Source: Candidatus Omnitrophota bacterium (lineage in GTDB: Bacteria; Omnitrophota; Omnitrophia; Omnitrophales; Aquincolibacteriaceae). From it: 64,000 bases of DNA. The DNA is taken from NCBI GenBank assembly GCA_030698625.1, contig JAUYMS010000021.1, positions 6,227 through 70,226 of the forward strand. Reading direction: 5' to 3'. Below the pieces are notes generated by a model. That model was not told where the DNA came from. It ran no database searches and saw only the letters and a list, made by a program, of their open reading frames with translations. Positions 24,470 to 64,000 of the stretch are shown here, piece after piece (the stretch's first letter is position 1; the number at the start of each line of letters is the position of its first letter). The position numbers and the translations under genes were made by a program.

Positions 24470-25279
24470 ATGAAACGCAAACAGCTGGATGACAACTGTC
24501 TTTATTTCGATATTACCAAGCAGGAGAGAGATTCCGCTATTCGCTATCTGCTAGGGGCTATCATCAAAGTCCGGGATGAAGGGGACTTTCCTTCCAACTA
24601 CTACATCTTCGATGAGGACGTCAATATCTACCTGGCCCATCTTCTTTTTGCAGTCTCCCTGCCGGAGTATCACGAAATGGCTGAGCCGTATCTTTCCACT
24701 GAATCGAGCGACATTCTGCGCTGGGTCAGGGCTACTGAGGATCGCACGGTTCGTTACTTTATTTTCAAGGTCAACGCCGACCACCTGTTGGTCCACAGTG
24801 CCGTGTTTAACGACCTAGAGAAACGCAAACCCCACAAGTTCTTTCGCAAGAACCACAAACATTACCGGGAGCTTGCGAAGCTTTACTACGATCAGGCTAC
24901 TGCTTATCACCGCAAGATTTACCGGAAGAGGACCGGGGTGGGCGAGGTCTTGGGGAAACTTTCGCATTACTATCAGTGGTATCAGGAGATCCTAAAGCAG
25001 GTTCGCCGAGAATATTTCCATTTTGTGAATAGGTTCCGCGACGAGGCCTTCGATCACTTTATGGATCAAGTCAGCAACTACGAAAACGATTTCCAGAAAA
25101 AAGTCAAATTGGACCATTTCCTGGATCTGTACGGGCGGTGGCTGGATACCAAGGATCCGGTCTTGCGTAAGGAAATTCAGAAGTTGGTCTACGACCTGAA
25201 GGCGCTCGATAAGCGCTTTCGTTTTGATTTGGAACAGCTTGGCGACGGGGGTTTCGACCATGAAAAGAAATGTGCGTAG
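24470..25279 (+). CDS. hypothetical protein (no recognisable family)
   Basis: Long ORF downstream of a ~360-bp AT-rich gap. Composition slightly lower in GC than its neighbours. Confidence 0.4.
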   Translation: MKRKQLDDNCLYFDITKQERDSAIRYLLGAIIKVRDEGDFPSNYYIFDEDVNIYLAHLLFAVSLPEYHEMAEPYLSTESSDILRWVRATEDRTVRYFIFKVNADHLLVHSAVFNDLEKRKPHKFFRKNHKHYRELAKLYYDQATAYHRKIYRKRTGVGEVLGKLSHYYQWYQEILKQVRREYFHFVNRFRDEAFDHFMDQVSNYENDFQKKVKLDHFLDLYGRWLDTKDPVLRKEIQKLVYDLKALDKRFRFDLEQLGDGGFDHEKKCA

Positions 25280-34680: not shown

Positions 34681-34709
34681 TTGAAAGTTACCTGAAAGAC
34701 CAGGATAAC
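34681..34709 (+). promoter_or_regulatory. candidate promoter of the giant gene: TTGAAA-N17-GATAAC
   Basis: -35 TTGAAA at 34681-34686. 17-nt spacer. Weak -10 GATAAC at 34704-34709. Located in a ~220-bp AT-richer leader. Confidence 0.3.
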
Positions 34710-34716
34710 GTCAAGC

Positions 34717-34735
34717 GAATGCAAGACTTGCATTC
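34717..34735. promoter_or_regulatory. perfect 9-bp inverted repeat GAATGCAAG-a-CTTGCATTC (operator-like)
   Basis: Read directly from sequence. It sits between the candidate -10 and the RBS (AGGAGAAG 34742-34749) of the giant gene. Confidence 0.35.
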
Positions 34736-34768
34736 ATTTTTAGGAGAAGACCACACCTTCAAGAAAAA

Positions 34769-34846
34769 ATGAAATCGAGACGTCTACTAAAACTCATAGC
34801 CATTGTCACATCACTTTGTTTTCTCTGTGAGCAAACCTTGTATGCC
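34769..34846 (+). other. signal-peptide-like N-terminus of giant protein (MKSRRLLKLIAIVTSLCFLCEQTLYA)
   Basis: Basic n-region, hydrophobic core, A-x-A-like end. Read from sequence. Confidence 0.5.
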
Positions 34847-43800: not shown

Positions 43801-46800
43801 GCCGACCAAGACACTGCTGCTGATGTCTTCATCTATGGCGCGCGTTCTGACGGGATTGATTGCCGAGGAAGCCGAGACACAGCCGGCAACAACAGATCTT
43901 GCGCCGCCTGCCGCGAATATGAGTCCCGCTGAATATGCTGAATCCTATCGGCAGAATATTCTCATTAATGGAAATCGCCTTCAGGACTTCTTGTCGCATG
44001 TCCCGGGTGCCTTAGTCGGTTATAAGGTAACGGCCGACATCAAGCAGAAGGGCCAGGGCGCGCCGCTCGCTTTGGCCCCCATATGGGCCTTCCGCCAGTT
44101 CGGGTTACAGCCTACGTTCCGCGTGATTCCCGACTTTGTAAGCCAGGCAGGGGAAATAAAGAATATTGCTTATATCGAAGCGACCGAAGGAAATCCGCCG
44201 GCCGTGAGAGTGGAGTTTAATAAAGCCTTGGAGGATCCGCGTACCGGGCAGTCTTTTACGGATGTTGCGCTTTTCGTGGTTAGAAACCCTTGGGCCGACT
44301 TCGCGCGATCAAGCGACAGCTTGGAGGACGTTGAGTTTGATACCGAAACCGTAAGGGGCTATGCATTCCGACCTGGGGATGCCCAAGTTGAGCGCACCCA
44401 AAAAATCCGTCAGTTGAGACAAGCCGCATTGGATCAGAAAGTCGTCTTGCGTGTTCCGTACTTATTGCCGCTGCATGAGGGGGCTGTAAAGCGTATTGCG
44501 GAAGCGATGGGACGTACGGCAGCAGAGCGGTGGGCCGCGGAAACGTACTTTGCGCTGGGCTTCAGTGACCCGAGCGGCAATACACCGCGGCGCATTGAGA
44601 GGTTTCCCGATCCGGAAAGGTCTCAGCCATTAATAGAAGGTGCTCAGACTATTGGTGACGCAGCTCTGGCCTTCAGTGACGGCGCCCGCGCGCGTATTAC
44701 TATTTTAGAAAGCAAAAAGAATTTGATTGCGCTCTTAGCGCACCCGATTTTTGAACCGTTGATGCGGCTCATGACGGCCCGTGACGCCAAGGGCGAGTGG
44801 GTCGTCAGTGTGCGAAGCGCCGGAAAGGTGGCCGCACAACTTGATCGATTGGCCGGTGACGTGATTCTGCCTGCGATCGATGATATCGCCAAACAGGCGC
44901 CCGAGATCCAGGATCAAGCGGCGCTTGCCCGTTTCGCCGCCGAACTCAATCTGGCCGCCCTCACCCAAGTCCCGAGAAGGATATATCAACAGCCCGACAT
45001 CAATGATATCCGCATACGATTAGTAACGGAAACCGGTCGGGCTTGGGATGCGGATCTCAGCAAGTTTAAGGCTGTCGTAACACCGCCTGGTTCCGAGAGG
45101 GACCAGACCCTTCGTGAAATTGCGGCAAAGGAAAGCCTCGTCATCGCCGGATTTGATCGTGAAGATACTACAGAGGAGCGCACCGCAGCCATGGCAGAAG
45201 CCTTAAGCGACTACCGGAAGAACGCCGAAGGGCTTGTCCTTCTGGATTTTTCATCGCCGGAAACATTGACGGCGTCAGCCCTGGATTTGGCGCATCGCTT
45301 AAAGACGGGAAGATCGCAGGCTGTCGAAGCGCGCCGCGCCTATTTAGAAGCCCTGGTTTCGCTTCGCAAACTCGCCGAAGCGGGGGATCAGTCGCGGGCA
45401 TTTACAAACGCCGCTGCTTTGCTTGCGACGCTCAACGACGGTGAGGATAAGGAGCGCGTCGAATTATTCCGCGGCCGCGTCCGTGCGGCACTCGTAGCTA
45501 ACATGCAGTCGCATCTGGATTCTGTGGCGGGTATGGTCACGGATGTTCACAAATCTTCCGGCGATATCGAAGCCGCGACGGCTGACGCGGTAAAACTTCA
45601 CGATTTATTGAGACCTCTCGTTGCCGGAGAGACCGGGCCTTATGAAACGGCGCTTGCATTCGCGCAGACCGGTTTGGAACGTAAGAGGGAAGCGGAGCAG
45701 CGGACCGCGGCTACTCGCGGCGCAGATCTTAGCCTCTTGGAAGGGCATCTGGAACTTGCCGCAGTGGCCGACAAACTTGAGGAAGCCGAGCCCGAGTGGG
45801 ATAAGGCACAGGCGATTATCCGGGAGGTCAAATTCGAGGAAGGCGACGAGAAGACAAAGTTTGAGGGGCTCATTGCGGCAACGGAGAAAAATGTGACGGC
45901 ACTCAAGCGGAAAAAACAGTTTGCAGTCGAACTCGCGACATTGCAAACGGATGGGAAGGCAGCTTACCTCAAAGCGCAAGCGTATGCCAAGCATCTGAAC
46001 GATGCCGATCCGGATATAGTGCTTGTCGAGCATATGATTGAATTGCTTATCGTTGCACAGGAAACAAAAGAATTGGCCGATTTTAGCGTGGCTGACCGGT
46101 TCTCATACCATTTGTTGGAAACGCGGGTCTTTAGGGCTTACGGGGCAAACGATCTTGCAACGCTTGCGGCGGGCAATGCTCTGATAGTCCGGGAGAATAT
46201 GGAGAAACGGGATTACACGGTGGAAATTGCACTCGAAGAACAAATCGAAAAACTGGATGAAGCAAACGACGTCCTTTTACGCCGGCGCGAGGAGCGTCGT
46301 ATCGATGAAATCCTCAAAAAGATGCCGGAGCGTGTGCGGCACGTAAGCCCCACAAGCTATGAAGCTTTTGCCAAGGAGATTGCTCAAGTCCGTTCCGATA
46401 TCGAAGGCCTCGCGCAGTATGATCATGCACGCATGCAGGGAACACTGGCCGCAAATCTAGATGCAGTTGAAATTATCTTTGAGGGCCGTAGGATTCGAGC
46501 CCGGATTGCCCGAAGTGCCAATGAAAGCCGCAAGCCGGGCGTCAAGAATCAAGCCGGTCATTTTCAGCGTGCGCGCACAGAAATCGCGGGGATCATTGAT
46601 CGGCTCGTTCGCCGTTTCGGCAGACCCGCTCACACTACCGCAGATGAGCTGCGAGCCGAACTCGATCGCGCCGCAAGTGGTTTCGATAAGAAGAAAAGAT
46701 CCGAGCTTCGAGTTGCCGAAGAAGTAGCCATTCTTCAGCCCGGTGAGAGCGCCTACGATGCTATGTTTAAAAACGGGGTCGCGGGAGGGCTCGAGGCATT

Positions 46801-49800
46801 GCGCGATTTTCTGGAGGAACGTTTCTTAGAGGGATCGGAAACGCCCTATGTGGTAAGGATTGTGCCGACCTCGACCGAGGAGAGAGCGGCATTGGAGGCG
46901 GATTCGGAAATCAGCGGGGTATCACCTCTTTATTCGGGGCCTGAGGCGGCCGACATTTTGAGCCGGCTGCGGATCTCGCAGATTTATCTGAACCAGGCAG
47001 ACTTGATTGAGATTTCTCTTTCCGAAGCGATTCCGTTATTCGGCAGATCCACAGATACGATTTCCATTGTCGGAGATGCCGACTTTTTCGCAAAGCTTCG
47101 CAACAGAAGCAGCTACGCAGCAACCATTAAAAGAGACGGCTATACGCCGGTAGAACGCGATGACTATGACACGATTTTTACCCGTGTGCGGCAAGAAGAC
47201 TTCCATGTGCTGGAAAGTGGTTGGGGATTTAACGCCGCAGAGCACCGCTTGGCATTTCGAGATGCCTTTGGCGTCGATGCACAAGCTGCGGATCTCTTGC
47301 TTTCCGAGGGCGAGTATTTGGAGCTTGAAAGGAACCGCCTGAGTGCACGAGTTGAGGCGGATCAGCAGCAATTGCGCGAAGACCTGGGGCAGGCGATCGA
47401 AGCCACCGGCAAAGGGAAAATCTCGAAGCTTGCGAGCAGGGCCTTGGCGCGAGACGAAACGGCAATCCATGAAAAGATTGATGCCCTGCAAAGTCAAGTC
47501 TCATTGGATGAGCATGAGGCTCCGCTGCTGTCGGGAACGCCGGAGACTGTCTATCAAACCGCCAAGCGAAAAGCCCCTGAAATATCCGCCCGGATTAAAT
47601 CGATTCAGGAACGGCATGCGGCACGGGAGGCGCTTGTCGGTGAGCTCGAATCTGCTCAGAAACTTCTCACCGAAGCTGTCCGAGCCAAGCAAGAATCCGG
47701 AGACATTGAATCCGAGATTGCCGATCTCGCGACCTTGTTCGAAGGGTGGGGTACTGTTGTGGACTATGCCGCCGAGATCAAGCGGATAACCGAAGCGCTC
47801 GAGGTCGCGATGGAGACAATCAGCAAGAAAATTGCCGCGCTTAAAGAAAGCGAAGTAATTGAAAAACCTCCCCTCATCGATGAGGCGACAGACTCCTTGC
47901 CCGCAAATGTCTTACTCAGGGAATTCCAGGCTGCTGTCGGGGAGTTGGGCGATCATTGGGCGGTGCAGGTACTCGAAGCGAGGCATGATCCGCGCTGGGA
48001 TCCGACTGCGAAGATAACCTTACCGGACCAGGGGTCCCAGGTTGCCGGTGCGGTGCGGGACATTCAGAAATTTGTTCGGGAAGTTCAAGCCATCAAGCCG
48101 TTTGCGGATGAAGAAAGCGGTAGGGAAGGCATTCGTGAGCTCGCCGAATCGTTTTCTTCAATCTATCGAACCATCGGCCAGCGTGCCCTCCGGTACGTCG
48201 GTATCGCGGGTACACGTGAGGATGCTGAAAGAAAGTTGAGAAAACAGGAGGAGGCCGCCCGCCAGCGGTTCATGCAGCGGCAAGATACCGGTATTCACGG
48301 CCCCGCTTCTAATACGGCTGCCCGGCGCGCTAAAGACAGGGCCAGAGATAAGACTCAACGTGCTCGTCAAAAGCGGAAGCATATGGACTATACCCTCTCC
48401 TACCTGACGGTGGCGCTCAGCATTGTTGAAGCTAATTTCAGGATGCTAATGCAGAGGGTGGCCTATGAAAATGCCTTCCTTCATCCGGTTAGAATCGAAG
48501 CCGAACCGAACCGGGAGAAGGTCAAGGAGGCGCTGAAATACATAACGCATAACCTACATGAGCGGGCGGGGGGGACATACAAACATCCGCCGCTGCGTAT
48601 GGGCATCGGCAGGCATGCGACTGACCTCGCCGAAGAGGTGGGATCCTTGATCGCGAATGTGGAAAATGCCGCCGACTTACAAACAGACGTGATCAATCTC
48701 GTCTTGAGATTAATGACCCTTGTCTCAAACCATGATGTGCTTTTTCCCGAACTCCTAGACAATGTGGGCGGCGCATACAAGGTGCAGTCATTCCTGACGG
48801 ATGAGATGATTCACTATGTGACCCATCTGCTTTCAGCCGCAGCTATTTCCTATGAGGAATCCGACTTGCGTACGAAGTTCGGCCTTCCGGATAATCTGGA
48901 TGGGACGGATGTCCTTGCGCAGTTAATTCACGAGGCCAAGGCGAATTGGCGAATAGCGCTTCACTCGGACGTGGAAGGAAAGGATACAGCGACACATCGT
49001 GAGAATCTTGCCGAGGTGTTGAAGCTGATCGCGTTTTCCAAAATAGTTCAAGATGACGATGACCTTTACGACAGATTGACTAAAACGAAGAGCTTCCCGG
49101 CAACCGAAGCGCTTATCGCCGAGAACGCGGACCGAATCGAGGCACTCCTCCGGCGCTCGCGGGAGGCCCATGGCCCCGACGGAATTTTTTATATTCGATT
49201 TCCTGCCGATCATCCCGACCTTCCTTTGGCAGAATTAGCGTTCTCCGCGCCGTTGGGGTATCTGCACGTATTAGCCGGTCCGGCAAGGACTCCCAATGAA
49301 CAGCATTCCTTGAGCGGCTATCCGGTGATCGGAAGCAAGGGGAAGAAGCCCGTTTTCTATGTGGAATATCCCTTCGACTACGCAGAACCGCAGCCGGTGA
49401 CGGCGTTCTTTTACAACTTTGCAGAGGAGCCGGAAATGCTGAGCTTCGCCCTTACGCTTAATAAATTGCGCGAAGAGGCGTCATTGGCGTCTGTATGGCC
49501 GGCCCTTGAAGGGCTCACGCGATGGATCGACGATCAGGCTCAGATCGTGACAATGGTCAACGCCGAAGGCAAGGAACTGGACTCAATGGGCTTTATGGCC
49601 CGCCGGCACCTGGAACGCGTGCTGACCTTAATTGCGGATAAGGTCGGTAAGACTGCTGCGCTGACGGCCGAGAAAATCGAATCGACTGACGGTAAAATGG
49701 CGCCGCAATACCGGGTGAAGATTGCTCATGAACATGGTTCCTCGATCGGCGAATGGGACGAGAGCGAGTATGACAACCTCGTATTTCTTATTAAGTTGCT

Positions 49801-52800
49801 CGGCCATGTGAAGCTTGCCGGCGAAGGGGAACCCGCGGAGCTCGAAGATGCAGAAATTTTCAGGACCCGCCATGATCACACGCTCGTCGGGGAGATGGCT
49901 AGAGACATCGACGGACGCACCGGCTACTTTGACGTTCGCATTCAGGGGCGCGGCGAAGAACCCGAGGAAGTCCTTATGACTCTCAAAAAGCCCGTGCGCT
50001 CAGAGCTCAGGGCAGAAGAGGCGGCCGTGCTGCAGCCGGGACAGACGGATTATAATCAGTTATTTAAAGACGGCATGCAATCAGGCCTAGACCGGCTAAG
50101 CGGCTTTCTTGAAGATAAGCTGCTGGAGGGAGGCGACTCGCCGTTTGTCCTTCGCGTGGTTCCGAGGAACCTTGAGCAGTGGAATGCACTGGATGAATAT
50201 CAACAGTTAACCGGTGTTGCGCCGCTTTACACAGGTCCGGAGGTCGCGGCGATTCTTGCCTCGCAGGACATCACAGAGATCTATCTCAATAAAGAAGATT
50301 TGGTCGAGATAGCATTTACCCCGTCCGGCGATGTTTTTGGCCGGCCGGCCGACACCGTGACCGTCATCGGCGATGCCCAGCTCTTCGAAAAACTGAGAAA
50401 CAAAGAGGCTTACCGCACGGCTATTGCGCGGGATGGTTATGCCGCCTTAAGTGAGGAAGATTACGATACGGTTTACACGCGCATTCGGCAGGAGCTCTTC
50501 CATGTATTGGAAAGCGGTTGGGGTTACCGGAGTGATAGTCAGCAGGCAAAGTTTCTGGAAACCTACGGAACCGATGCCGAGGCGGCTGAACTCCTTCTTT
50601 CCGAAGAGGGATACCGGGATTATGAGAAGTCCGTCTTGCTCGACACAATCGGTGTAGATCAGACGCGATTACGGCATGCACTCGAGCAGATCGCCGAGCC
50701 CATTCACAAGGGAGCTATGAATCCGCTCCTCGAAGCAGCTCTTCAGAGCGAGGAAACCGAGATCCGCGGGGAAATTAACCGTCTGGTGAATCACGCGGCT
50801 TCTGTGAGGCCGCTTCCTCTGCAGCGGACAGATATTGAGCCGGTTTATGCCGCGGCAGACGCTGCCGTCGTTGCCATAGCGATGACGATCGAACAAATTC
50901 AAGCGCGGCATGGCGCACGCGCGAAGCTGACCATCGAACTGGCGGGGTTTCAGGAGCTCTTAAGCGAAGAACTTGCGTCACGTGTGAGCGGTCTTACAGG
51001 AGAGGGCTTGCAGCAAGTTCGGGCTGAAGCTTTGGATCAAGCCTCGCGTCAGCTTACCTCTGAGATCGCATCGTTGGCCGGCACTTTCGGCGGGTGGGGA
51101 AATATTGCCACACATCAGGAAGAGCTAAAGAGAATAGCCGGCGAGTTGGAAACCCGCGCAGCGGCGATTGGCCGAAAAATCCGGGCGATCACCCTGCCGG
51201 AAGTTGAGAAAGAAATCCCTGCGGTTATTGAACCCGCGGCAGACGAAGGCCTAGCCTCGAATATCGTGCTGCGGAAGCATCAGGAACGGGCCGCACAACT
51301 GATGCATCACTGGTCCATGGTTGAAGCGGCAAAGCAGCCGGACCGCGACAGAATGGCGGCGAAAATGCTGGGCGAGATGCGCGATCATGCCGCGGCGATC
51401 GCGGCGGCCCCAGCCTATGCCGACGATGAATCGGGCCGTGCGGCCATTAGCGAGCTTATAAAAGAGTCACATGCCCTGTCGCGCGCCTTGCGTCTCGAAC
51501 TTCACGCCATGAAGGATGCCATTCAGGCTTCAGCCGACCAATTGCCCAGGGTTCTCGACGTGATGAGCCGGGCAGTCGAGAAGCAGACCGCGCGGGCACT
51601 ATCCACCATGCGGGGTAGATCCGGCGGTTCGTCAAGACGGATGATAACGAAAGTGATAGGAAAAGTGAATGAGGAGCGCGAGGCCTATGCCAGAAAAAAC
51701 GGCACAATCATGCAACTGATCGTTGCCGTCGCTCATTTTAATGAGATGACACAGGACCTTACTGGAGACGCCGTGAACATCGGCCTTCTGGATTTCGATG
51801 AGTCTGACCCTGTTGAGCTGGCTGTCTGGAACGCGGAGCCGGTCCGCTCAGAGGTTAACCGGGACGTGCTTATCCGTGTTTTGAGGCGCCTCGCCTCGGA
51901 CCTTCGTGATGAAGAGGCCCATGACTATGACCGCGACGAAGGCGGAATTCCCGGAATCGAAAAGAGGTTACCCATTGGCGGGCCTTCATTTGGAAGAGCG
52001 CACGGTGAGGCGGCCGCGCGCATCGAGTCTTTGATCGACGACCTGCCGACGGATACCGATGAACTGCGCGGTCAATTGACACGCGCCCTTGTTGACGTGG
52101 CGAATTTGCTCAGTATGACCTTTACCTTCTATACACAGCTTCTCCAGGGTGATGCGAAAGCGGATCGGGAAAACAATTTCACCACTTACGATATGCTCGG
52201 TGCCCTTGTGGCCTCATACCGCGCCGCGGGTCTCAGTGTCAACGAAAGCGCTATCCGCGAAATGATGGGTTACAGAAAGGCATTTGAGGCGGATTTGACA
52301 TTGCGTCATGCCGCCATGTCGGCACGGCGTGTCTGGATCCTGGAGCGAAAGAAAGACGCCGCGGGAGAAAATGCGCCGCTCCACGATGAAAATTTTTCGG
52401 AGTATATGCGCTATGTCGCTTATCTGAAACTGCTTCGAGACGAGAAGGCGCTAAGGGATGAACTGGAGAAGGCAGCCGGCTTTGCCGGTATTTATGCGTT
52501 AATGGAGAAACACGCAGACCGTATCGATGCGTTACTCGACGAGGCGCGACAGGCTCACGATGGCAGACTGAGCGGTGAGATCAGCATTCCTCAGAGTGAG
52601 AGCACTCTTCCGGGATTCGTCATCAATGCGACAAATGCAATGGGCGTAATTCATGAGTTGCAGATAACGGGTCAGAGCGATGTCGCCGGCCGCCTCTTTT
52701 TCGATGCGCCGCGTGCGGATTTCACCGGCGGTGTAGAGTATTATATCCAGTGGTTTGAGCAGGACCGGGATCCCACAAAGCGTTTAAACGCTCAACACCT

Positions 52801-55800
52801 TCCGGCCAGCGACGAGGGCATGGCGCTCTATGCTATCGGGCTCAGAGACTTTATACGGCACTTCGAGGCCGGCGACTTGTCGACGGAAAACGCCCGGATT
52901 GCGGCGGCCATCATGCCGACTGTGACCAGCCTCCTTGCCCGGCTCGAAAAACGCGCCCAATTAGTTGAAATGGTCAATACCGAAGGCAAACGTCTGGATG
53001 CCGCTCAAGAAGACGTGAGGCGTCGCGTGACGGATCTCTTCAAAAAGCTACTTTATCGAAAGGCAGATTGGCTTACTCTGACGGCAGAAACCAAAGAGAT
53101 TCGCGTGCAATCAAGCCCGGTACATCCGACAGAACAGAAAAGCGTAACCCGCTATTCCGTAACCGAGAAGATGCCGCAATCAGTCGTTACCTCGGACGAC
53201 CTCCCGTCAAATTACGACAACTTAGTCTTTCGTTTGAAGCTACTGGGAGACGTCAAGAAGAAAGTCGGCGATGCTCTCGCTGACATCGGTGAGGAGCGTT
53301 TCAATACCCACCATGATCACCTGCTGGTGGGGGAATTGACATTCGAAGAGTCGGTAAGATTCGGTATTGAAATCCAGGGCCGCGGGGAGAACCCGGAAAG
53401 CGTCAAAATTACAATTCTTGCAATGGATGCGGATGTCACGATAAGCCGTCCCAGGGGTATTCGACGCTCCGAGCTCAGAATGCAGGACGACGATGATGAG
53501 GAGGATGCTAAGCTGACGGTTGCCGAGGTCGAGCGCATTCTTTCCGAAAGCCCGAGTGTTGAAAATCTATACCGCATTATGGATAAGCTCACGGAAATCA
53601 ATAAAATTCCCGGTTCGAGCAAAAACAATCTGAGCGTTCCTCCTGCGATACTTTCATCCCTGCTCCTTCATTATGATGCCGCCGAGCGCGTGCTGAAGCA
53701 GGGGCAGGGCCTCGCCATGCAGTTGACTTACATGGGCGCGATCGCGAGTTGGTATCGCCGTCACCAAGACGACATTCTGGCCGCCTATGTCACGTACGGA
53801 GACGTCACCATCCTTGAAGCCCTTCGTGATTTCGCGGCTATTTATGCTCCGCAGGATCACATAACGAGTGCTATTCAAGCGGCGATATTTGAATTCAAGG
53901 CTCCGGCGGTTCAAGAGGAGAAGGCCGTGGAGAGTGAGGACGATGTCCTGCGCTTGAACGGTTTTAAACTGAAGGTGCGATACGCCGATCTCGAAATGCG
54001 CCGCCGGGCGACGGAAGACGTGCTCTACGGAGAATGGGCGCTCGCACCAGCTGATGCCTCGAAGCTTATGGGTATTGACGGCGACCGCCTCCGGGCGAGG
54101 CGCGCGATGCTCATGAAATATTTCAAATCCTTGCAGCCGTCTCCCCATGTCATTTTTGACCCCATTTTAAGTCCGGCACTCTTGCGTTTAAGGCTTACAA
54201 GTGTGCGAAATACGGTACTCGCGTTCCCCGAGACACTCGAGGAATTTGAAAAGCAGCTCCGGGAAGAATTGGCGAAAGAGGGTCTCGCAAGTGATGGGGA
54301 ATTCTTCAAGCAGCGTGATGACCTCTATGGCCGCGAGATGTGGGAAGCCGTAGAAAACGAGATTCGCCTGGAAAGCGAGACCCGGGCCGAATCCAACCGC
54401 GAACGTTTGCACCGGAACCTGCTGGTGCAGCAATTCCGCGAATGGTTCCTGGGCCTGTCGCCGATATTGCCGGAGGAAGCCATGCCACAAAATGTTTTTA
54501 CGGATGACCGGAGCTCCTTTGTTGTTCCCTTTGACGTCGTGCGCCATGAATCCCGCGCGACACTCTCGATCGCACCCAGGTTTCGCAAGGATGAGAACGG
54601 TGAGCCCCGCACGATTTGGCTGCGTGCGGCGGAGCACCCCGTGACCCGCGAAAAGATGATCACGCTTCACCTTCGCCCCGACGGCGAGGTCCTGGGTTAT
54701 GCCTTATGGGATGAATACGACCAGAAATTTCGTGGATATGAAGGACCGATGCTCCACACTCAATATGCCAATCCCGCTCGGCGTCACTTCGAGTCCTATG
54801 TCTATGATCCGTACAACGTCACACCGATGAAGCCGCGCCGGATGAAGGTTCGCGGCACGATTCGTGAGCAGCGGCGCATCACCCTGCTGCCGTCGTTTGA
54901 GGGCAAAGATTACAGCAATGTCTATAACGTGAATTTCAAGACGAAGGAATCCGTCAAGGTTGAGACTGTTGCCATTGCCGGTGAGAGCCGTTTTATCCTG
55001 CATCTGGCCGCAAAACCGGGGAGGCGGGAGCAAAAGATCGTACGCTACGCTCATGATGACGAAGTGAGGCTGCTTACTCCCGAAGACGAGTTGGTGAAGA
55101 GGTTAGCTTCCGATTGGACAAAGGAAATGCCGCGCGCAATTGCGTTGGACCGGACTAAGGCGGGCCTTCTGAACTTTCGCAAAGAGAGCGTCGATCAACA
55201 GGGCTTGACGGTGAGACTGCCCAAGGTCAAGAAGGATTGGGATCGCCAGGTATTTGTGACCTTCCACCTCCAACGCGTCGACGGAAAACTCCAAAAGGTG
55301 ATTGATGTTTATGGGAGAAACAAGAAATGGGATGAGGAAGGCCGTCCTGTTGAACATATCTGGAGCGGATATTACGACGAGGATGAGGATGCGATGATCG
55401 TCTTTGACGATTTTGAGCGGCGGCGTCTGGTCGGCCACGAGCGCTATGATATCCAACTGCATGCCTGGAGTTTGCGTTATGCCGAGCGCCCGGGGGATAT
55501 CTTTACACCGGCCGAGACTGAGCATCTGATTCGTCTCGCGACACTCGATAAGCCGCATACTTTGGAAGAGGTGTGGAAAAATTTCGGAGGTGAAAATTAT
55601 TCAATCGAGTATCTGGAAAGTGTCTTCAAGAAGCTGCAGTCGCCGCGCTTGACGCCTGCGAGGCGCCTTGTCCATGTCGGTAACAACCGGTACTCGTCTC
55701 TGCTGAGGATCCGGATTACCCGGCATAATGAATACACGCACAATCACCGGCGTTATCATCTGGCCTACGACAACTACGACCTGGAAGACGTAACATCCTG

Positions 55801-58800
55801 GACGGCCTTTGAAGATAACCTGCCGCTGACGCATTACTTTTTTGACCACAATGTCCCGACTCTCCATTTGAAGCATGCCTGGGATCTTGACGGCAAACTG
55901 ATCGGATTCGGCACGCGGCGTGTCGACGGCCTGGGTGAAAGTTTTGTCTTCGGTAATTACGGACTCGAGAAAAAGGCGCGCGTTTCCGTAACGACAGCAG
56001 GAAACCGATTCCGCGTTCCCGGTAAGATGGGAGAAGTGGTCGCCGGTGTGGTCGTTGATGGGGCACTGATGCGGGTCGATTGGTTTCGCAAGGGCACTGA
56101 AATTCATAATATCTATGACATGAGCCAGATCGGCTTGGGAATCATTCGCTTGAAAGACGGGATTAAGCCGACTCGGAGCGCGACGCGGGCCGAACACGGT
56201 GAACTGCATGCACGGACGCTGCAAGCCTTAGTGGACAAGACGTGGACCGCCGCATGGATGCTCGAAGATACCGTGCAGCGTGCTCTTGACGAGAATGTCA
56301 GTGCGGCGCTCAGTAAAAGGCAGGCAAATGCCGCCAAGATCGTCAACCTGGGCCCTGATAGCCGGGGCACGGGCATCTTAGGGGCTAATGACGATGACTA
56401 TGGCATCACCTTCGGCGTCCAATTCCAGAGTCGCGCCCATCTCAACAGGTTCCTCAAGAAGGGCGACATGACGGCGCTTGAAGAAGTGCGCCGGATCTTT
56501 GAGCGTGCAGGCATGCAGCTCAGTTTAAAAAAGAAGGATACTAAGCGCACCGAAGGAAAAAAGATTGAATACCTCGGTCTGTACCGGGGTCGGCATATTC
56601 CCGTCAAGATCCGCCTTTATGCGAGGGCCGACAAGAAAGGGAGTATTTACAACGACCGGTTTGAGAATCAAATGGGCAAATTAAAGCGTCTCCGCGCCAG
56701 CGCCTTCCACCTCAAAGAGGAGATTAAAAAGTTTAAGGAATTTGCGCGCGAGGCAGGCATCTATGGCGACCTGGGAGATGTGCTCATGGAACAGCTCGTG
56801 ATCCAATCGGGAGAGGCAACCCATGCCGGCACCTATATCCGTGGCCGCGGAACCGCGATTAAAGCTCTGGATTGGATTCTCAACGAAGGGTACGGGTATC
56901 GCGGCAAACCTATTCGCTGGGCGGAAGTGAAGAAGAACTTCAAGGTTCATTATCCCGGTTATACCGAAAACATCCTGGCCGAGTTGAACGCCAAGACGTG
57001 GAATCAGTTGCTGGAGATGGCCAATACATTGCGAGGAGAAATCGTCGGCCGCAGCCGGGTTTCGCGCCATATTCGATCGGGAGTGCGGAAGGGAAAACTT
57101 GAAAAGGGTCTGCGCGTTATTGACGGCAGGGAGTTTGAGGGCATGTACCTGCTTTCCGAGAATCATAAGCGCATCACTTTGTGGGGATATGTACGCCTCA
57201 ATATTCCGCCACATGCCAAACCCTCGGAAATCGAACTTCATATTGATCCGGCGCCGCACATTGCGTCTGACGCGTGGACGGCCTCTCTGTGGTACAAGCG
57301 TCCCTCGGTGCCCATCGACTCGGTCGTCATCTTTAGCAAGGGGCAACTTATCGAAAAGGGTCCCCTCGCGGACGGGCGCGCAGGCTTCGCGCCTGTACGC
57401 GGTCCGATACCGGCTATCAAGACAAAATTTCGCGTTAGGGGAACCGAGGCACAGCGGTCTCGTTCGGCGACGCTGAAGGAAATCAAGCAAGCCTATCAGC
57501 AGAGGCTGTGGCTTGTCAGCGGGGGAGGCAAGATCCCCAAAGTTCAACCGCTGACTATATACAATGGTGTCGAGGAGTTGCTTCTTGCGCAGGGTGGCCA
57601 AACGATCGAGATTCCGTTAGGAGATGAATTCAACGGGAAGCGTGCGCGGCGTTCCTGGGTCCTTTTTCCAGAACTTGGTCCGGATGCCCGCGGGGTCGCC
57701 TATACCAGGCGCATCGGCAACCGGACGATCAGAAAGGAATTCGTACTGTTTCAGAACGGACGATTTGTGAAGGCGAGACGCGTCCAAAGCCAGCGCTCCG
57801 AGCTGCGCCAGCACGGTTATGGCACCGCGACAGTGGATGAGATTGTTTCGGACTCGAGGTTTCGCACCTTGCGCTATGACCGTAATGATTTTCTGTCGCG
57901 TCAAACTCCGGAGGCCCCGGTTAATTACGCTGCGCTCCGTGAGAGTTTGAAAGAGCTGGTCTCATACGCGGCCGGCCATGCGATGCCCTATCGCGATGTC
58001 GATGCCCCCAGGATCCTGGTCCAGATGGGCCTCGAAGATAAAGCCCATATATTGCAATTTCTCGATCCGAGTGCTATCGATGCCGTCGATGTGTTTCTAC
58101 ACAGCCTCATCTACCGAATCCGCATTCAGTTCATCGAGACGCCGACCGGTCTTTTTAGATTGAACGGAAAATTCCGGACTTCTTTGATCCAGTCTGATGA
58201 TCAGAACTTCTACACGATTCAAATTCCGATTAAGGAAAAGGACGGCCGCGATTTGTTTAGTCCCGAAGAGCGGGCAGTTATTATCGCCTATGACATAGCG
58301 TATGCCGCGGGCCTGTCGAAGGGGATGGATGAGGAAGCCGCCGATGCCTATGCCTGGCTCTTTACGGGCCTTTACAGCGTTATCTTCTTCTCCAAGCCGA
58401 ATGCGGTGAAGAGCAAGTACGAAAGACTTGCTCGGGAACTTAAGGAATTCGGCGAGCCGCAGGAATACATGACGCGCATGACGGTGGGTGACGCCGTGAT
58501 CGAGATCAAACAAGGCGACCTGACACTCGAGGCTGTGGATGCGCTGGCCTATGGCTCGAATCCGGATATTCAGTTCGGTATCGGCGCAAGCGGCGCCATC
58601 GCGCGAAGAGGGGGTGACGCCGTATTAGCGGAAGCTGCTATGAAGCCGCGCCTTGCGCCGGGTGAAGCGACATCGACTACTGCGGGCGAGATGGCCGCGA
58701 AACACGTGATTCACGCGGCTGTTTCTGATGAGTTCCTGAGGACCGATCTCAATGTGATTCGCGATGCTACCCAAAGCAGTCTCATTGAAGCGGACCGGCT

Positions 58801-61800
58801 GGAAGATGTTACCTCACTTGCGTTTTCTGCTTTCGGAACGGGTACGCTCGGCATTCCCTATAACGAATCGGCAGACGTCATGCTCGATGTCATCGAAGAA
58901 CATCTGGCAAGTTCCGGCACATCTCTGAAGAAAGTGGTCATCGTCCTGTTCGAAACAGATGCTTACGACGAATACGTTGAGGCGCTCATGAGACGGAGCC
59001 GCGGCCGGTCGGAATTGCGCGACGGTATTTCTGCCCTGCTTGCGCAAATAAATCAGGAGCCGATCCCGCTCATTGACGGGCCGGTAATGATCATGATGGG
59101 CGTGATTGCCGTCACAGTGTTTCTTGTATATTACTTCATGGTCGTGCGGCCGCGCTTGCGGAAATGGGTGGAGGAAGAGCAAAAGAAGAAAGAGGTCAAG
59201 GCGTCGCGGAAGCGCCCGGTGAAGTCAGCGCGGCAGGATAGGCTCAATTATGCCGCCGAGCAGCTCGGGAAATTTAAGGCCCAGGCCACCGATCAGCGGT
59301 ACAGCTCGCAGGGGCAATTGAGAGATGCCCGCGATGCGGCGGCCAGTCGTTACAAGCAAAGGTTCGGTGAGGATAGCACCCATAAGCGTTTGAGATTAGA
59401 TCTGGCACTTGCCTTCGAGGAGATTATGCGCGACCGAGGTGTTGCAGAAACCACGATCGAAGCGGACTGGCCGGACAAGGTGAAACGGCCGCGAGTGGAC
59501 AAATGGCGCAAGTGGTTCCGCAAGCGCGGCACGGCCCTGCTTCTATATAGAGAGTTTGTTGAAAAGCAGAAGGACGATACAGAGCAGGCGGCACGGTTTG
59601 AATTCAAGGAAGGACAGTACCAAAAATACATCGATAAGTTCGGTGAAGATCCGAAAGACAAGCGCCGTCGGCAACTGAAAGCCTGGTTGGAGACGAGTTA
59701 TGAGAAAGCGCTGCGCCGTCGGGGTGCACCGGCAGAATTGCAGCCGGTCGTCGACGAGCCTGCCGCTGTGGTTACTGAACCGGCGGAACTGCCTGCCGTC
59801 CAGGGGGTCGAAGCTCAGCCCGAGCCGCACCCGGAGCCATCGGTAGCAGTTGCCGAATCGGTTGTCCATACGCCGGCGAAGCCGACAGCAGAGTCTACCT
59901 TGGAAGAGTTTCGCGCCCAAAACGCGGGGATATACAGCGGCATGGCCAGAGTGGCTGTCACGACGAGTTCGACCCGTGAGCGGGCCGATGAATTACTGGC
60001 TCAGTTTGATCAAGCCGTGCAGTCTGCGATAGAACGATTTGCGGCTCTGCTGGATGAAGAAGAGGCGGCTCGCTTCCGTGTCATTGCCGCTACTACTGAT
60101 TTTATTCTGAGCGCGCGCGCAACGATTCAGGATCATGTGCAAACCTTTGTGGATGCCGATAATGCGCGCGACTTGTTGAGAGAGGCTCTTTCAACCATTG
60201 ACCATGATATTCGCCGCCGCATCAGGCACATACGCATGGCCGACGACGGAACTGTCCCTGCCGATGCCGTAAGGTTCGACGATATTTTCCAGCATCCCGG
60301 AGTCACCGGTTTTCGGGCATTGGTGGATGAACAGCCTCTGCCGGAAGCTGAAAAAGCAGAGTGGAAGCCGCGCGCGGCCGATATCGCGGAGCAGTTAAAG
60401 GTTGTCTTGGAAGATCGCTTGGCGACGGGTGTGTGGAAGACGGCGCCGGGCATTATCGCGAACCTTGAGAGGGAATTACGGCCGCAAGTCGTCAATCTTT
60501 CTTTGCACGGTGATGCGATCAACCGGCATGAACGGGTGCGCGCGATTCGCACGTGGTTGTCTGTGAATATCCCGCATGAACGCGGTAGAAAGGATCAGGC
60601 CGATTACCACAACCGGTTGCGTGAGGTCGGAGACGTCGTTCGCCGATTGCGAGGAGAGTCAGACGCCATTCTGGCGGACCCGGAGCGGTTTCGTGCCGCC
60701 TTAGCCGTGCACGACGATCCGATTGCCTTCGGTGTCTTGGCGGCCAATCAGGGCGATTTTGAATTTGCCGAAAAAGTTTTAACATCACTTATTCTAGACG
60801 ATGTATCCAAGTCCAGAGAGGAGCAGGCGGTGAGCGCAAATGCGGCACTTGCCCTATCGGGACTCTACGATAAACGGGGCCGTTTCGGTGACGCGTATCA
60901 GCTAGTCTCGACTCAGGCCGCATATCTCAAAGCAGCAAATCCGGATTTGTCGGCTGCCGGTGACGTGCACGCTTCCGATACGCTCGCCAGGGTGCTCGTG
61001 ATTCGGGCGATTAGAGATCTTGAAGAGAGCCAAACAACGATGTTGCAGGAAAATTTGAGCCGTGATCCGGCAAACCGCTGGGTGGGCGGAGTCGTTATTT
61101 CATCCGCTCGAGTCATCGCAGGCATTCGCGATTTACAGCGCAACGTGGCCGATCTTTCGCTTCGCGGCGATGCCATTCTTGACCACCCGGCCGTGCAAGC
61201 GGCGCGTGAATGGCTCAATCGCAATCTGCCTCACGACACGGAAGGTGAGAGTAAAACCGCTTATGACCAACTGACCGCGGAAGTCGACCGCATGGCCAGC
61301 CAGCTTGTAGCTGAGTCCGCGAAAATCATCGGTGATCCGGTAACATTCAGCGAGGTTCTGAGTAACCTAGAAAACCCCGTCGCCTTTGGTGTGCAGGCAG
61401 CCTACGACGGCGATTTCGATTTCGCGGAAAAGGTCCTGCTGTCAATCGCGGGGCGCGACTTCCCGGCATTATTTCGGTCGCGTGCAGCAGGTACGACTTC
61501 AGAGAACGATGTGACGCTGCAACTACGCAGCACGGAGGCGGCCCGCCAGCTTGCCATTCTTTATGAACGCCGGGGACGCAGTGGCGAAGCTCATGCATTG
61601 CTCGAAGAGCAACTCGATTGGCTTTATCTGGTCAACCCGTGGCTGCGTAAGGAAGGCATAAGTGTCGGCAGTCAGAGTCGGCTGCGAGCCGTGGCGGCAA
61701 GCCTGGAAGCAACGTTGGCGAATAGCACGCTTCAATCCGCCGAACTTTTTAGAGCGCGCGGCGATCAAGCGGCAGCGCGAGAGGGTTATCGCCAAACACA

Positions 61801-64000
61801 GGCCCGCGTTGCACGCCTACCGAACTGGGAAAGCAATCGTGAGCTATTGAGTCTTTATCATCGCGCAGGCCTGGCTTTGGAAGAATACGAGGATGGGGTG
61901 CCCGAGACACCTCAGGATTTGGCGGCCGCGGACGAAACGGCGAACGACTCCGAAGAAATTGTCGATTTTGATTCACGACTGGACAGCATTTATGAAATGC
62001 TCCGCAGTCGGACAGCTGCCGGGTCGTTGAAGGCGGCCGAGATGTACGCCCATCGGGAAATTACGGCTTATCGGGACGCCCTTTTTAACAGCACGCTGCC
62101 TCCGGATGAGAAGGAAGCAAAGCTTCTGTCTTTGGAATCTGACTTGGCGGGCGCTGCCTTCAGGAACCTGCGGGCCATTGTTGAAAACGGTTACGAACTC
62201 ACCGATGAAGAGCAACCGCATTTCGATCAGATTGAGCGCTACCGGAATATGCTAATTGCCGCCGGGCTTGACGCCGAGACCGGTATTCCGGCAGAGGAAC
62301 GGAAAAACCGGTTACAGGCGATTGCTGACATGATTGAAGAGTTGAAGGTCGCACCGCTCAAGGCGGAGCTAAAAGATCTTGTGCCCGTGTTGTGGGACGG
62401 CGTACGCGAGTCATCGCGTCGCCGTCGCGGGCGCGAGGGTCAGGACCGTAAGGTGTTATATCCCGAGGACGTTTTTTCAGACCGCAGCGTTGTCGAGTTT
62501 CAAGAAAAGGTCAACCGCGTCCTTTCCGGCGATGATATCGCCAGAGAAGAAATCCTTGCCGAGTTTGACGATCACCTGGTTCAGATGGCGCACTTTCTCT
62601 GGAAGGGAATGAACGCGATGGCGGTTAAGTACATCAATAATCAGTGGCAGAACGCGACGATGGCGATGATTAGTGCCGGTAAATTATTTGCCAACGCAGG
62701 CAGGGCACGGAAGCAGAATGATAATGACGGGGCCGTTCGCTTTTATAATGAAATCATACGTATCACAAACGAAGAAGCCGATGATCGTGTGCCGGAATTT
62801 GTGAGGCGGTCTACCATCGTGCGGGCCGTGGTCGGGAAGTCTGCGGCGCTCCGTCACAACAGTAAATTTCAGGAAAGCCGCTTTCCCAGGGCCCTTGAGG
62901 TGGTGAAGGCTGCCTATGAAGAGGAACCGTGGAGCCATTTTCTTCTGACCGAACTCGGGTGGATTGAGTATCACTGGGGCCGTAATGTAACGGCCGGCCG
63001 AAGGAAGCATTTCGAAGAGGCCAAAAAGCATGCGCTGGAACTCGTTCGTCGAGCGCCCACCGACAGAGGCGGCCAGCACTTGTTGGCTTGGACCCATCTT
63101 GCGCTCGGAGAAAATGCCGAAGCGCTCGCAATGGCTCAGGCTTATTATAATGAACAACCGAACGAGTGGCTCGCCAACGACCTGTTAGTCTCCGCGCTCA
63201 TCGCAAATAATCGCAAAGGTGAGGCTGTGACGCTTGCGAGGAAGATCGATCAAGAAAGCATCGGTGATGTTACGAAACTGACTGACGCCGCGAAAATCGG
63301 CACCAATCGGTCAGAGTTGAGAGTGGCGCTCGTGGCTCCTGTTGCGGCCCGGTTTAAGACATCAATTGGATTGACGGCACGAATTGTGCGGCTAGGCGAC
63401 TCGGTTCTGGGTCAGATCATTGCGACTGCTTATGCGGAAGTCCCGAAGCTGGTGATTTCGACGACAACTCAGGATCAAATCACGGTTGATTACAGCCGGG
63501 TCTTTGAAATCACTCAGGGTGCCGAAGCCGTATTGTCGGCCGGTTTGCTTCGCGAGCTATCGCCGGCCGGCCGAGTTGAGTATGTCGATGCGATTTTGGC
63601 GGGTGCTGAAGACGCTGATCGGCACGCTTTACCCGTGATTCATTTTGCCGGTGATGCCACGTTGAAAGAAGAGTTATCCGCCTCACCCGCATTTCGTAAT
63701 CCTCTCGCTCATCAAATATTCAGTGTCAGTCCTCTGGAGGAGAGTCTTGTTGCGAACACGGTGAGCGCAAAGCCCGTTTCCGTATCATTAGATACATTGC
63801 CTTCGGAGTCGAATCCGCTGGCCGGTCAGATTCCTGCGATGCTCCTGTCGGCCGTAGAGCGCGACGGCGACCTTTCGGAAACAGACCGTTTTCTGCGTCT
63901 GCACCGTTTGACCCAACTTCAGCTTCTGGCCGCTCATGAACTGAAGGACCGCCTCAAGGGTGCTACGCCCGCGCGAACCGGCGAGCTGCTTGGGGAATTC
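34769..64000 (+). CDS. giant multi-domain protein (at least 9,744 aa, 3' end beyond window); modular or polyprotein-like, function unknown
   Basis: ATG 34769 is the first start codon after the in-frame TAA at 34706-34708. The frame (pos mod 3 = 2) was checked by hand at 35162, 36761, 40931, 42002, 46697, 49982, 53459, 55982, 57782, 58988, 60002, 63302 and 63962, and is the same throughout and protein-like. No frame-2 + strand ORF appears in the track anywhere in 34769-64000. That is expected only if this frame has no stop before the window edge, because the track lists stop-terminated ORFs only. All listed ORFs here are short (<=306 aa) off-frame or antisense. Confidence 0.85.
   Translation, partial: [9744 protein letters not shown]
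36455..36469 (+). other. RSELR motif 1 ([12 protein letters not shown])
   Basis: agg tcg gaa ctg cgt, in the giant-gene frame. Confidence 0.8.
36707..36721 (+). other. RSELR motif 2 ([13 protein letters not shown]), immediately N-terminal of the DHQS-like domain
   Basis: cgg tcc gag ctc agg. Confidence 0.8.
36767..37860 (+). other. dehydroquinate-synthase-like (sugar phosphate cyclase superfamily) domain inside giant protein
   Basis: KTLVVLDRG...[19 protein letters not shown] (Gly-rich NAD loop, ~37061). [41 protein letters not shown] (37134-37195; compare AroB PTTLLAQVDSSVGGKT / NLIGAFYQP). [24 protein letters not shown] (compare GHTFGHAIE). [12 protein letters not shown] (37577-37612; compare HGEAVAIGM). 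Confidence 0.75.
37904..37918 (+). other. RSELR motif 3 ([13 protein letters not shown]), immediately C-terminal of the DHQS-like domain
   Basis: cgg tcc gag ctg cgc. Confidence 0.8.
38045..38059 (+). other. RSELR motif 4 ([13 protein letters not shown])
   Basis: cgc tcg gag ctg cgc. Confidence 0.8.
40946..40960 (+). other. RSELR motif 5 ([14 protein letters not shown])
   Basis: cgc tcg gaa ctc cgg. Confidence 0.8.
46697..46711 (+). other. RSELR motif 6 ([13 protein letters not shown]), start of module A
   Basis: aga tcc gag ctt cga. Confidence 0.8.
46697..49996 (+). other. paralogous module A (~1,100 aa) of giant protein
   Basis: Begins [27 protein letters not shown] and ends ...[37 protein letters not shown]. 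Colinear similarity to module B along its whole length. Confidence 0.7.
49997..50011 (+). other. RSELR motif 7 ([13 protein letters not shown]), module A/B junction
   Basis: cgc tca gag ctc agg. Confidence 0.8.
53465..53479 (+). other. RSELR motif 8 ([15 protein letters not shown]), end of module B
   Basis: cgc tcc gag ctc aga. Confidence 0.8.
57794..57808 (+). other. RSELR motif 9 ([13 protein letters not shown]), N-terminal boundary of the Macro-containing segment
   Basis: cgc tcc gag ctg cgc. Confidence 0.8.
58487..58985 (+). other. Macro (ADP-ribose binding/processing) domain inside giant protein
   Basis: [25 protein letters not shown]...[18 protein letters not shown]...[21 protein letters not shown]...[31 protein letters not shown]...[16 protein letters not shown]. 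Matches the macro-domain pattern (GDIT..VDAIVNAAN, GGGV.GAI, G.A..T.G..L.AK.VIH.VGP, SIAFPAISTGVYG.P). Confidence 0.7.
59006..59020 (+). other. RSELR motif 10 ([13 protein letters not shown]), between the Macro domain and the TM helix
   Basis: cgg tcg gaa ttg cgc. Confidence 0.8.
59084..59146 (+). other. predicted transmembrane helix inside giant protein ([21 protein letters not shown]), followed by Lys/Arg-rich segment
   Basis: 21 consecutive hydrophobic residues flanked by PLIDGP and [26 protein letters not shown] (positive-inside style). Confidence 0.55.
60381..61656 (+). other. tandem duplication of a ~190-aa unit near the window end of the giant protein (units ~60381-60953 and ~61070-61656)
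   Basis: Unit 1 contains [31 protein letters not shown]...[36 protein letters not shown]. Unit 2 contains [33 protein letters not shown]...[36 protein letters not shown]. Confidence 0.6.
63308..63322 (+). other. RSELR motif 11 ([13 protein letters not shown])
   Basis: cgg tca gag ttg aga. Confidence 0.8.

Follow-up and report, generated by a model that had tools for sequence, protein, structure and literature searches.

A 64,000-nucleotide stretch of contig JAUYMS010000021.1 from a Candidatus Omnitrophota bacterium (hereafter the window, meaning the whole stretch) holds a giant open reading frame (ORF) in which a macro domain sits inside a unit of about 400 residues that begins and ends with the pentapeptide RSELR. 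With moderate confidence, we lean towards reading this unit as one module of a polyprotein-like precursor, in which RSELR separates the modules and is most likely the site of a dedicated endopeptidase. The macro domain, the over-representation of the motif, the match between motif and module border in five lineages, and a transmembrane (TM)-like helix with asymmetric flanking charges are all directly supported. Few predicted proteins are as large as the giant proteins of Omnitrophota, and whether they exist as single chains or as pieces is a question on which RSELR bears. Combining a recognisable domain with borders marked by an exact pentapeptide, the macro cassette lends itself well to a test.

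As we picture it, nucleotides 57794-59020 would encode a self-contained module of about 400 residues within a precursor of more than 9,764 residues, composed of a conserved alpha/beta domain and a macro domain with an intact ADP-ribose pocket and without the catalytic Asp of the MacroD type. The macro domain would bind ADP-ribose and may remove mono-ADP-ribosyl groups. A dedicated endopeptidase would recognise RSELR, a cut there would release the macro module at about 45 kDa, and the TM helix would anchor the next module, with a short N-terminal tail outside and a body of about 1,400 residues in the cytoplasm.

The macro cassette and its RSELR borders

The cassette consists of an opening RSELR, 399 residues and a closing RSELR, with the two motifs 404 residues apart, so that the boundaries given in the preliminary description of this DNA are correct. 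Its parts are listed here, together with the homologous borders in four metagenomic relatives (P0001, P0002, P0003 and L002, introduced below):

57794..57808, + strand, opening RSELR of the macro cassette; homologous borders RSEVR in P0001, RAEAR in P0002, RSEMR in L002 and GASLG in P0003
57809..58477, + strand, N-terminal domain of the cassette, about 223-228 residues; alignments A1 and A3, AlphaFold2 (AF2) model
58478..58993, + strand, macro domain; Pfam, NCBIfam and PDB phmmer, with pocket motifs kept in the cassette relatives
59006..59020, + strand, closing RSELR of the macro cassette and opening border of the next module; homologous RSEVR, RAEAR, RSEMR and GSSLG

The presence of a macro domain, first proposed from the letters alone, is borne out by Pfam, NCBIfam and PDB phmmer in agreement. 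Against a cutoff of 22, the Pfam Macro profile (PF01661) reaches 49.2 bits over model positions 5-118 of 118 (nucleotides 58559-58882), and NCBIfam NF001667 aligns over model positions 3-175 of 182 (nucleotides 58478-58993), ending 4 residues short of the RSELR at 59006. The score of NF001667 (83 bits) is the best in NCBIfam and lies far under its equivalog cutoff of 252; every NCBIfam equivalog cutoff was missed. By PDB phmmer, the closest solved structures are Thermus TTHA0132 (2dx6; 7e-18) and PARP14 macrodomain 1 (1.5e-17), and the next matches are E. coli YmdB (3.4e-13) and MacroD2. Taken alone, the domain is unremarkable within a fold that is well known.

In macro domains, the individual roles of the pocket residues are well established, namely those of GD(I/L)T, the adenine-binding Asp, the Asn, the Gly-rich loops and VIHA. 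The window copy retains GDLT, the Asp of VDA, the Asn of YGSN, loop 1 (FGIGASG), VIHAA and loop 2 (FGTGTLGIP), and these motifs align with those of TTHA0132 and PARP14 macrodomain 1. The strings quoted earlier for this domain (GASGAIARRGG, GEATSTTAGEMAAKHVIHA and SLAFSAFGTGTLGIP) all occur in the translation. The quoted pattern VDA..N..N is the canonical one and fits the window in part: it reads VDALAYGSN, in which the second Asn is present and the first is replaced by Tyr. The pocket, with its Gly-rich loops and motifs, is therefore intact, and the MacroD-type catalytic Asp is absent, as seen from GIGASGAI in the window versus GGGVDGAI in L003, an ordinary macro protein. The position of that Asp is occupied by Ser in the window, Gly in the cassette relatives (GIGVGGxI) and Ala in TTHA0132 (GAGVAGAI). 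By our own reading of the phmmer alignment, PARP14 macrodomain 1 also does not have it, and this domain is reported to be active as a hydrolase, to cluster with SARS-CoV-2 Mac1 and to have the same catalytic residues (PMC10499325). Because the pocket is intact and PARP14 macrodomain 1 reportedly hydrolyses without the MacroD Asp, ADP-ribose binding by the window domain is likely and mono-ADP-ribosyl hydrolysis is plausible.

The cassette also holds a conserved N-terminal domain of about 228 residues, which the preliminary description did not mention. Residues 6-228 of the cassette are conserved in all five lineages, with the invariant motifs GYG, FxETxTGxF, RxSL and DGxDLFxxEERxVIxAYD in the alignment, and conservation is at least as high as that of the macro domain and includes many invariant acidic residues. 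The AF2 model of the core (nucleotides 57920-58450) shows four helices, a five-strand meander and three helices at a predicted local distance difference test (pLDDT) score of 72-92. Searches of Pfam, PADLOC and PHROG gave no match to this domain, and Foldseek gave no significant match to its fold in the PDB. Against BFVD, the best Foldseek match was SprT-like and not significant (E of at least 0.06, TM-score at most 0.26); the domain has no HExxH motif, and the SprT/zincin-like matches are weak. Since it always accompanies the macro domain in the cassette, it is likely a functional partner, for example in substrate recognition or a second catalysis. A defence-system or phage origin of the cassette was considered and is unsupported, as PADLOC and PHROG gave no match.

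A HMMER search over 1.84 billion representatives returned 3,852 macro-domain matches, three of which cover the whole cassette: P0001 (2,952 residues; a longer form, P0151 from ENA, has 5,278), P0002 (1,663 residues; MBI1977588.1, annotated 'macro domain-containing protein', Ca. Omnitrophota) and P0003 (JGI/IMG; 6,209 residues). An alignment-based scan of genome contigs found two Ca. Omnitrophota loci in separate metagenome-assembled genomes, L001 (the same as P0002) and L002. Genome contigs scanned with the single window protein gave no match, and neither did a homologue search with the cassette, with or without its Lys-rich tail, though P0001-P0003 are in the collection searched, so that this result reflects a limit of sensitivity and not absence. 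The metagenome scan yielded only L003, an ordinary small macro protein, and the IMG/VR scan yielded no viral relatives. All taxon-labelled relatives of the cassette and of the head domain at the start of the giant ORF (L001, L002, MBI1977588.1 and P0153) belong to Ca. Omnitrophota/Omnitrophica. Identity of the cassette to the window is 41-46% in P0001, P0002 and P0003 by MAFFT (45-49% by phmmer) and 42% in L002.

In P0001, P0002 and P0003, the cassette lies at residues 2078, 872 and 2294, and in each relative it is bordered on both sides by that protein's own over-represented pentapeptide (observed/expected 9/0.033, 6/0.028 and 7/0.029). The position of the motif is thus fixed across five lineages, and its sequence is lineage-specific; in P0003, the closing GSSLG comes after a linker of about 40 residues. 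The borders read as follows:

P0001, opening IKRSEVRQHGYGTATV, closing RPRSEVRNVV
P0002, opening NRAEARNVLLSGYGNLA, closing AARAEARTLG
L002, opening GRSEMRVLPYGDIATL, closing LQRSEMRSTE
P0003, opening GASLGTPHGAGYGNATA, closing GTGSSLGNLP

The P0003 motif can be written G[AS]SLG, with AESLG and AKSLG variants, over residues 6-5938, and RPDQAA(D)GG often comes next. P0151 uses RSEVR seven times and RSELR and KSEVR once each. Features noted in P0151, at about residues 3200-4970, are what looks by eye like an SNF2-type helicase module (LLGDEPGVGKS...), a tandem array of three repeats each about 190 residues long and, between the first two motifs of the protein, a module with several TM segments.

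The motif itself is far more frequent in the giant ORF than composition predicts, with 11 exact copies against 0.039 expected and no one-mismatch variants in that ORF. The features that it delimits, and those at the start of the ORF, are:

34709..64000, + strand, giant ORF, 9,764 codons or more, with no stop before the window ends; 11 RSELR
34769..34846, + strand, putative signal-peptide-like N-terminus, MKSRRLLKLIAIVTSLCFLCEQTLYA; basic n-region, 12-residue hydrophobic core and possible cleavage after LYA
34847..36454, + strand, head domain, ending at the first RSELR; alignments A4 and A5, AF2 model at pLDDT 58
36455, 36707, 37904, 38045, 40946, 46697, 49997, 53465, 57794, 59006 and 63308, + strand, starts of the RSELR copies (motif scan)
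36707..37918, + strand, 3-dehydroquinate synthase (AroB-like) module, full length, from the RSELR at 36707 to that at 37904
46697-49996 and 49997-53464, + strand, adjacent paralogous modules of about 1,100 residues each, neither with a Pfam match

The codons for RSELR vary at every position (Arg as AGG, CGG, CGC or AGA; Ser as TCG, TCC or TCA; Leu as CTG, CTC, CTT or TTG). Because each site has its own codons and the DNA around the sites is unrelated, selection on RSELR acts at the peptide level and not at the DNA level, and the same two facts rule out a DNA repeat. Lys is enriched 2.3-fold in the upstream flanks, and the downstream flanks are without conservation. Six-frame translation outside the giant ORF gave two RSELR, about the level of chance: one at 12653 (- strand) inside a phosphoribosyltransferase-like ORF (12225-12923) and one at 27547 (- strand) in an antisense frame of panC, each consistent with chance.

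Between successive motifs, the modules are 79, 394, 42, 962, 1912, 1095, 1151, 1438, 399 and 1429 residues long. The AroB-like module matches NF004852 over positions 11-402 of 407 (312.8 bits, cutoff 333; nucleotides 36737-37918) as well as Pfam DHQ_synthase and DHQS_C. It is a cytoplasmic-type housekeeping enzyme sited behind a signal peptide. The sole internal paralogues are residues 3997-5096 and 5097-6252, which share 31% identity, align from motif to motif and both open with RSELR-(V/A)(A/E)E(E/A)(V/A)A(I/V)LQPG. In the AF2 model of the first half of the cassette, residues 1-28, including RSELR, have pLDDT below 50, and the core beyond them is at 72-92. A short conserved motif stands at the borders of independently folding units. 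The shortest modules are those of 79 residues (36470-36706) and 42 residues (37919-38044), which would be freed as small peptides if RSELR were cut.

In whole-word searches of the literature, RSELR, RSEVR and RSEMR turned up only in papers on PL7 alginate lyases, in which R-S/T/N-E-L/V-R is a conserved motif of the catalytic region (PMC9331746). This identity was rejected for the window, as the companion motifs QIH and YFKAG are absent from the giant ORF and no alginate-lyase Pfam match was found in it.

The next module and membrane topology

After the closing RSELR, three features are relevant to topology:

59021..63307, + strand, next module, 1,429 residues; TM anchor followed by a mostly helical region, ending at the RSELR at 63308
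59078..59146, + strand, TM helix GPVMIMMGVIAVTVFLVYYFMVV, 23 uncharged residues (residues 8124-8146)
59147..59266, + strand, Lys/Arg-rich stretch beginning RPRLRKWVEEEQKKKEVKASRKRPVK, 14 Lys/Arg in 40 residues; predicted cytoplasmic

Signal-peptide and TM calls on the giant ORF rest on scale-based methods and sequence features. By these, the hydrophobic segment noted earlier is a convincing TM helix on the Kyte-Doolittle scale (mean 2.49), on the Hessa scale and from its charged flank. Nowhere else among the 9,764 residues is there a run of at least 19 without charged or strongly polar residues, and no other 21-residue window has a negative Hessa-scale sum (-2.2, the next being +5.1; scale values entered by hand). 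The rest of the next module has no Pfam match and shows a weak TPR-like signal near its end.

The helix begins 19 residues after the closing RSELR. It closely follows the cassette, as first noted, but it belongs to the next module because it is situated past that motif. No TM segment follows the closing motif in any of the four cassette relatives, so the adjacency of macro domain and helix is specific to the window gene. In P0003, a TM-like segment does occur 3 residues past a different border motif, at residue 3474, and TM helices at module N-termini may be a recurring design.

At the other end of the protein, the first ATG (34769) opens a reading of MKSRRLLKLIAIVTSLCFLCEQTLYA followed by Asp directly after the possible cleavage point, and a hydrophobic N-terminal segment is common to all six aligned head-domain homologues. 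The precursor thus has, as was stated from the letters alone, two membrane-topology determinants about 8,100 residues apart. Of the two topologies then offered as alternatives, the flank charges favour one over the other: the 15-residue flank that precedes the helix lacks Lys/Arg and has a net charge of -2, and the 15 residues after the helix contain seven Lys/Arg. Because Lys/Arg are concentrated after the helix and lacking before it, an N-out/C-in orientation is predicted by the positive-inside rule, and this orientation matches a signal peptide combined with a stop-transfer anchor. In an uncut chain, about 8,100 residues would lie outside and at least 1,618 (the residues that follow the helix inside the window) would lie inside, and both AroB, which is NAD-dependent, and the macro domain would be extracytoplasmic. 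If the chain is cut at RSELR, location is decided module by module.

P0002 adds a second view of topology. Its last visible module (residues 1486-1663) has two TM segments and then a GT2-like start, LPTVSILIPVRNES, and positive charge lies, by eye, on both outer flanks of the TM pair. This argues that the region upstream of the pair, including the macro cassette, is cytoplasmic, which would clash with export of an uncut chain by its signal peptide. The conflict would disappear if the chain were cut at the motifs, and delivery of modules into the cytoplasm of another cell would be an alternative account of it.

Proposed processing and its alternatives

RSELR is probably a processing site, and we infer cleavage there mainly from the pattern of conservation: the position is conserved and the sequence switches by lineage, as for the site of a co-evolving enzyme. 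The cassette, the AroB-like module and the paralogous pair all end at motifs, comparative evidence for an architecture of discrete modules. Several points weigh against reading the ORF as a processed precursor. RSELR might serve to link or dock modules without any proteolysis. Pfam and NCBIfam scans of the 9,764 residues and of the 34 kb before the ORF turned up no peptidase family, and the reading frame runs on beyond the window. The comparison draws on four relatives, a small sample made up wholly of metagenomic fragments. The macro copy of the window has drifted from its relatives (NPSN to YGSN and VGG to ASG), and its activity could be weakened by this drift.

The candidate protease also belongs among these points. 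The head domain is the only module common to the N-termini of all relatives with a known N-terminus (homologues P0001/P0151, P0002 and P0153-P0155). Alignment A4 of three sequences has invariant QxAH, EG, RFYxLAxxR and GGFH, and alignment A5, which has six sequences and includes P0153-P0155, retains only AH, EG, one Arg and GF as invariant. This pattern presumably resembles that of the Tiki/TraB/erythromycin-esterase superfamily. Pfam and PDB searches with hidden Markov models gave no match to the head domain, and its Foldseek matches in the PDB at ranks 1, 2, 3, 6 and 18 are EreC, BcR135 and ChaN, all non-significant (E of at least 1 and probability at most 0.18, on a model of pLDDT 58), so that a Tiki/TraB/EreA-like protease in the head domain is a lead. 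Near the N-terminus of this domain, a conserved motif reads LPSELG, LPEELG, IPKSLG, VPSEFG or IPSDLG across homologues. It resembles the border pentapeptides (xSELx, xSLG); the likeness may be coincidental, or the motif might be a processing site, either ancestral or for a pro-peptide.

One rival explanation, to which we give about one part in four of our belief, is that the giant protein stays uncut and RSELR is a conserved element that joins or docks modules, such as a hinge or the binding site of a chaperone, secretion component or modifying enzyme, with the macro domain acting in cis, as reader or eraser, on a membrane-anchored scaffold. Our searches of the window found no protease, a signal peptide with a single N-out/C-in helix is a self-consistent topology, and Nielsen & Lui (bioRxiv 10.64898/2026.06.07.730766) describe membrane-anchored multi-domain architectures without mention of processing. 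However, an exact pentapeptide with unconserved flanks, whose sequence switches by lineage at a fixed position, is what enzyme sites, unlike structural linkers, typically show; units as short as 42 and 79 residues make poor scaffold domains; and the charges around the P0002 TM pair would place the upstream region in the cytoplasm, contrary to export. It is also possible, though we think it rather unlikely, that the signal peptide directs the export of the first 8,100 residues and that the macro cassette is an effector outside the cell or in prey or a host, for instance by erasing defensive ADP-ribosylation. This would agree with the signal-like N-terminus conserved in all head homologues, with the stop-transfer-like orientation of the helix, with the description of Omnitrophota as predatory or parasitic and the implication of giant proteins in prey attack, and with closest characterised macro relatives that include PARP14 macrodomain 1, a hydrolase grouping with viral Mac1 (PMC10499325). 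Yet the same exported stretch holds a full-length NAD-dependent 3-dehydroquinate synthase that needs a cytoplasmic cofactor, the SNF2-like ATPase module of the relatives (identified by eye) also needs cytoplasmic cofactors, and the cassette has no PADLOC or PHROG match and no sign of delivery into another cell.

A further view concerns the macro domain alone, which might be a non-catalytic or degenerate binder of ADP-ribose or nucleotide, with the real activity in the N-terminal domain. The replacement of the MacroD Asp by Ser here and by Gly in the relatives, the Tyr in place of the first Asn of NxxN, and an N-terminal domain at least as conserved and rich in invariant acidic residues are all in line with it. 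But the window copy keeps the Asn that matches the critical Asn of viral Mac1, together with the adenine-binding Asp and the two Gly-rich loops, and PARP14 macrodomain 1, likewise without the MacroD Asp, is reported active (PMC10499325), so that we regard this view as rather unlikely. As for artefacts, a mis-assembly or pseudogene with RSELR derived from a DNA repeat is extremely improbable. The frame is stop-free over 29.3 kb, motif codons vary with unrelated flanking DNA, and independent metagenomic relatives carry both the cassette module and the head domain; nothing was found in favour of an artefact.

Returning to the polyprotein-like precursor, we consider as a tentative extension, for which the case falls somewhat short of even, that giant ORFs of the Omnitrophota type are true polyproteins cut at lineage pentapeptides by a co-evolving protease that is possibly encoded in cis, the head domain being a candidate. 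If true, many separate proteins would be released (a macro enzyme, 3-dehydroquinate synthase, membrane-anchored modules and small peptides), so that cells would have, on a giant scale, an equivalent of the way viruses express polyproteins. That giant proteins of Omnitrophota are cleaved was put forward by West-Roberts et al. (bioRxiv 10.1101/2023.11.21.568195), who stated that the points of cleavage were unknown, and the motif would supply the missing cleavage map. If the motif is a processing site, giant ORFs could be divided computationally into modules for structure prediction, topology puzzles such as cytoplasmic-type enzymes behind a signal peptide could be re-examined per module, and a direct test with reporter constructs would be possible.

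Chromosomal setting and comparable systems

The locus is a bacterial chromosome and not a virus, with housekeeping genes alongside. The single frame of the giant ORF runs stop-free from 34709 to the window end, and the 34 kb upstream hold HisRS, AspRS, PhoH, YbeY, LptF/G, GlgC, RecO and PanC/PanD as well as UvrA, CutA, an XRE-cupin regulator and a ComEA-like gene. Two ORFs on the + strand, 7505-8821 (438 residues) and 24470-25279 (269 residues), have no Pfam match at E of at most 1e-5. Synteny with L001 is not kept: its upstream genes are MreBCD, PBP2 and RodA, and those of the window are UvrA, CutA, XRE-cupin and ComEA-like.

At about 10,000 codons, the giant ORF is of the size described for Omnitrophota giant proteins (West-Roberts et al. 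2023; Nielsen & Lui 2026; Seymour et al. 2023, PMC10066038), with which it shares a signal peptide and TM segment and a mostly Pfam-dark sequence with occasional metabolic or regulatory enzyme domains. It differs in that dockerin, SecA-like, C39 and S8 domains were not found in the window part by Pfam and NCBIfam scans. In text searches, the macro module is unmentioned in all three of these studies and the border motif is unmentioned in both preprints.

Beyond the phylum, the gene can be set beside other large precursors. MARTX toxins are secreted giant precursors with swappable effector domains in strain-variable order, released by an internal cysteine protease domain (CPD) at loosely defined Leu-containing linkers. 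The concept is alike, with a large precursor, enzymatic cassettes and short processing sites, but Pfam and NCBIfam found no CPD or RtxA repeats here, the pentapeptide here is exact, and the content here includes AroB of a housekeeping type. Coronavirus nsp3 (Mac1), alphavirus nsP3 and hepatitis E virus ORF1 carry macro domains in polyproteins with TM segments and a cis protease, and viral replicase polyproteins have short conserved cleavage motifs. The embedding of a macro domain in a giant precursor is common to these and to the window gene, which differs in its bacterial chromosome (HisRS, AspRS, UvrA and LptF/G), in having no IMG/VR relatives and in that no protease was found.

Phage and conjugative-element polyvalent proteins are, reportedly from the work of Iyer et al., huge multi-enzyme proteins with helicase, ADP-ribose-related and peptidase-like domains, for which processing after delivery is said to have been proposed. 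The window gene differs from them in being chromosomal and having a signal peptide, and the link consists only of non-significant Foldseek matches in BFVD to 'large polyvalent protein-associated' and SprT-like models (E of at least 0.06). Finally, the pocket motifs are shared with the stand-alone macro proteins TTHA0132 and YmdB and with PARP14 macrodomain 1, and TTHA0132 is likewise without the MacroD Asp. The macro domain of the window differs from these in being fused to a conserved N-terminal domain of about 225 residues within a giant ORF.

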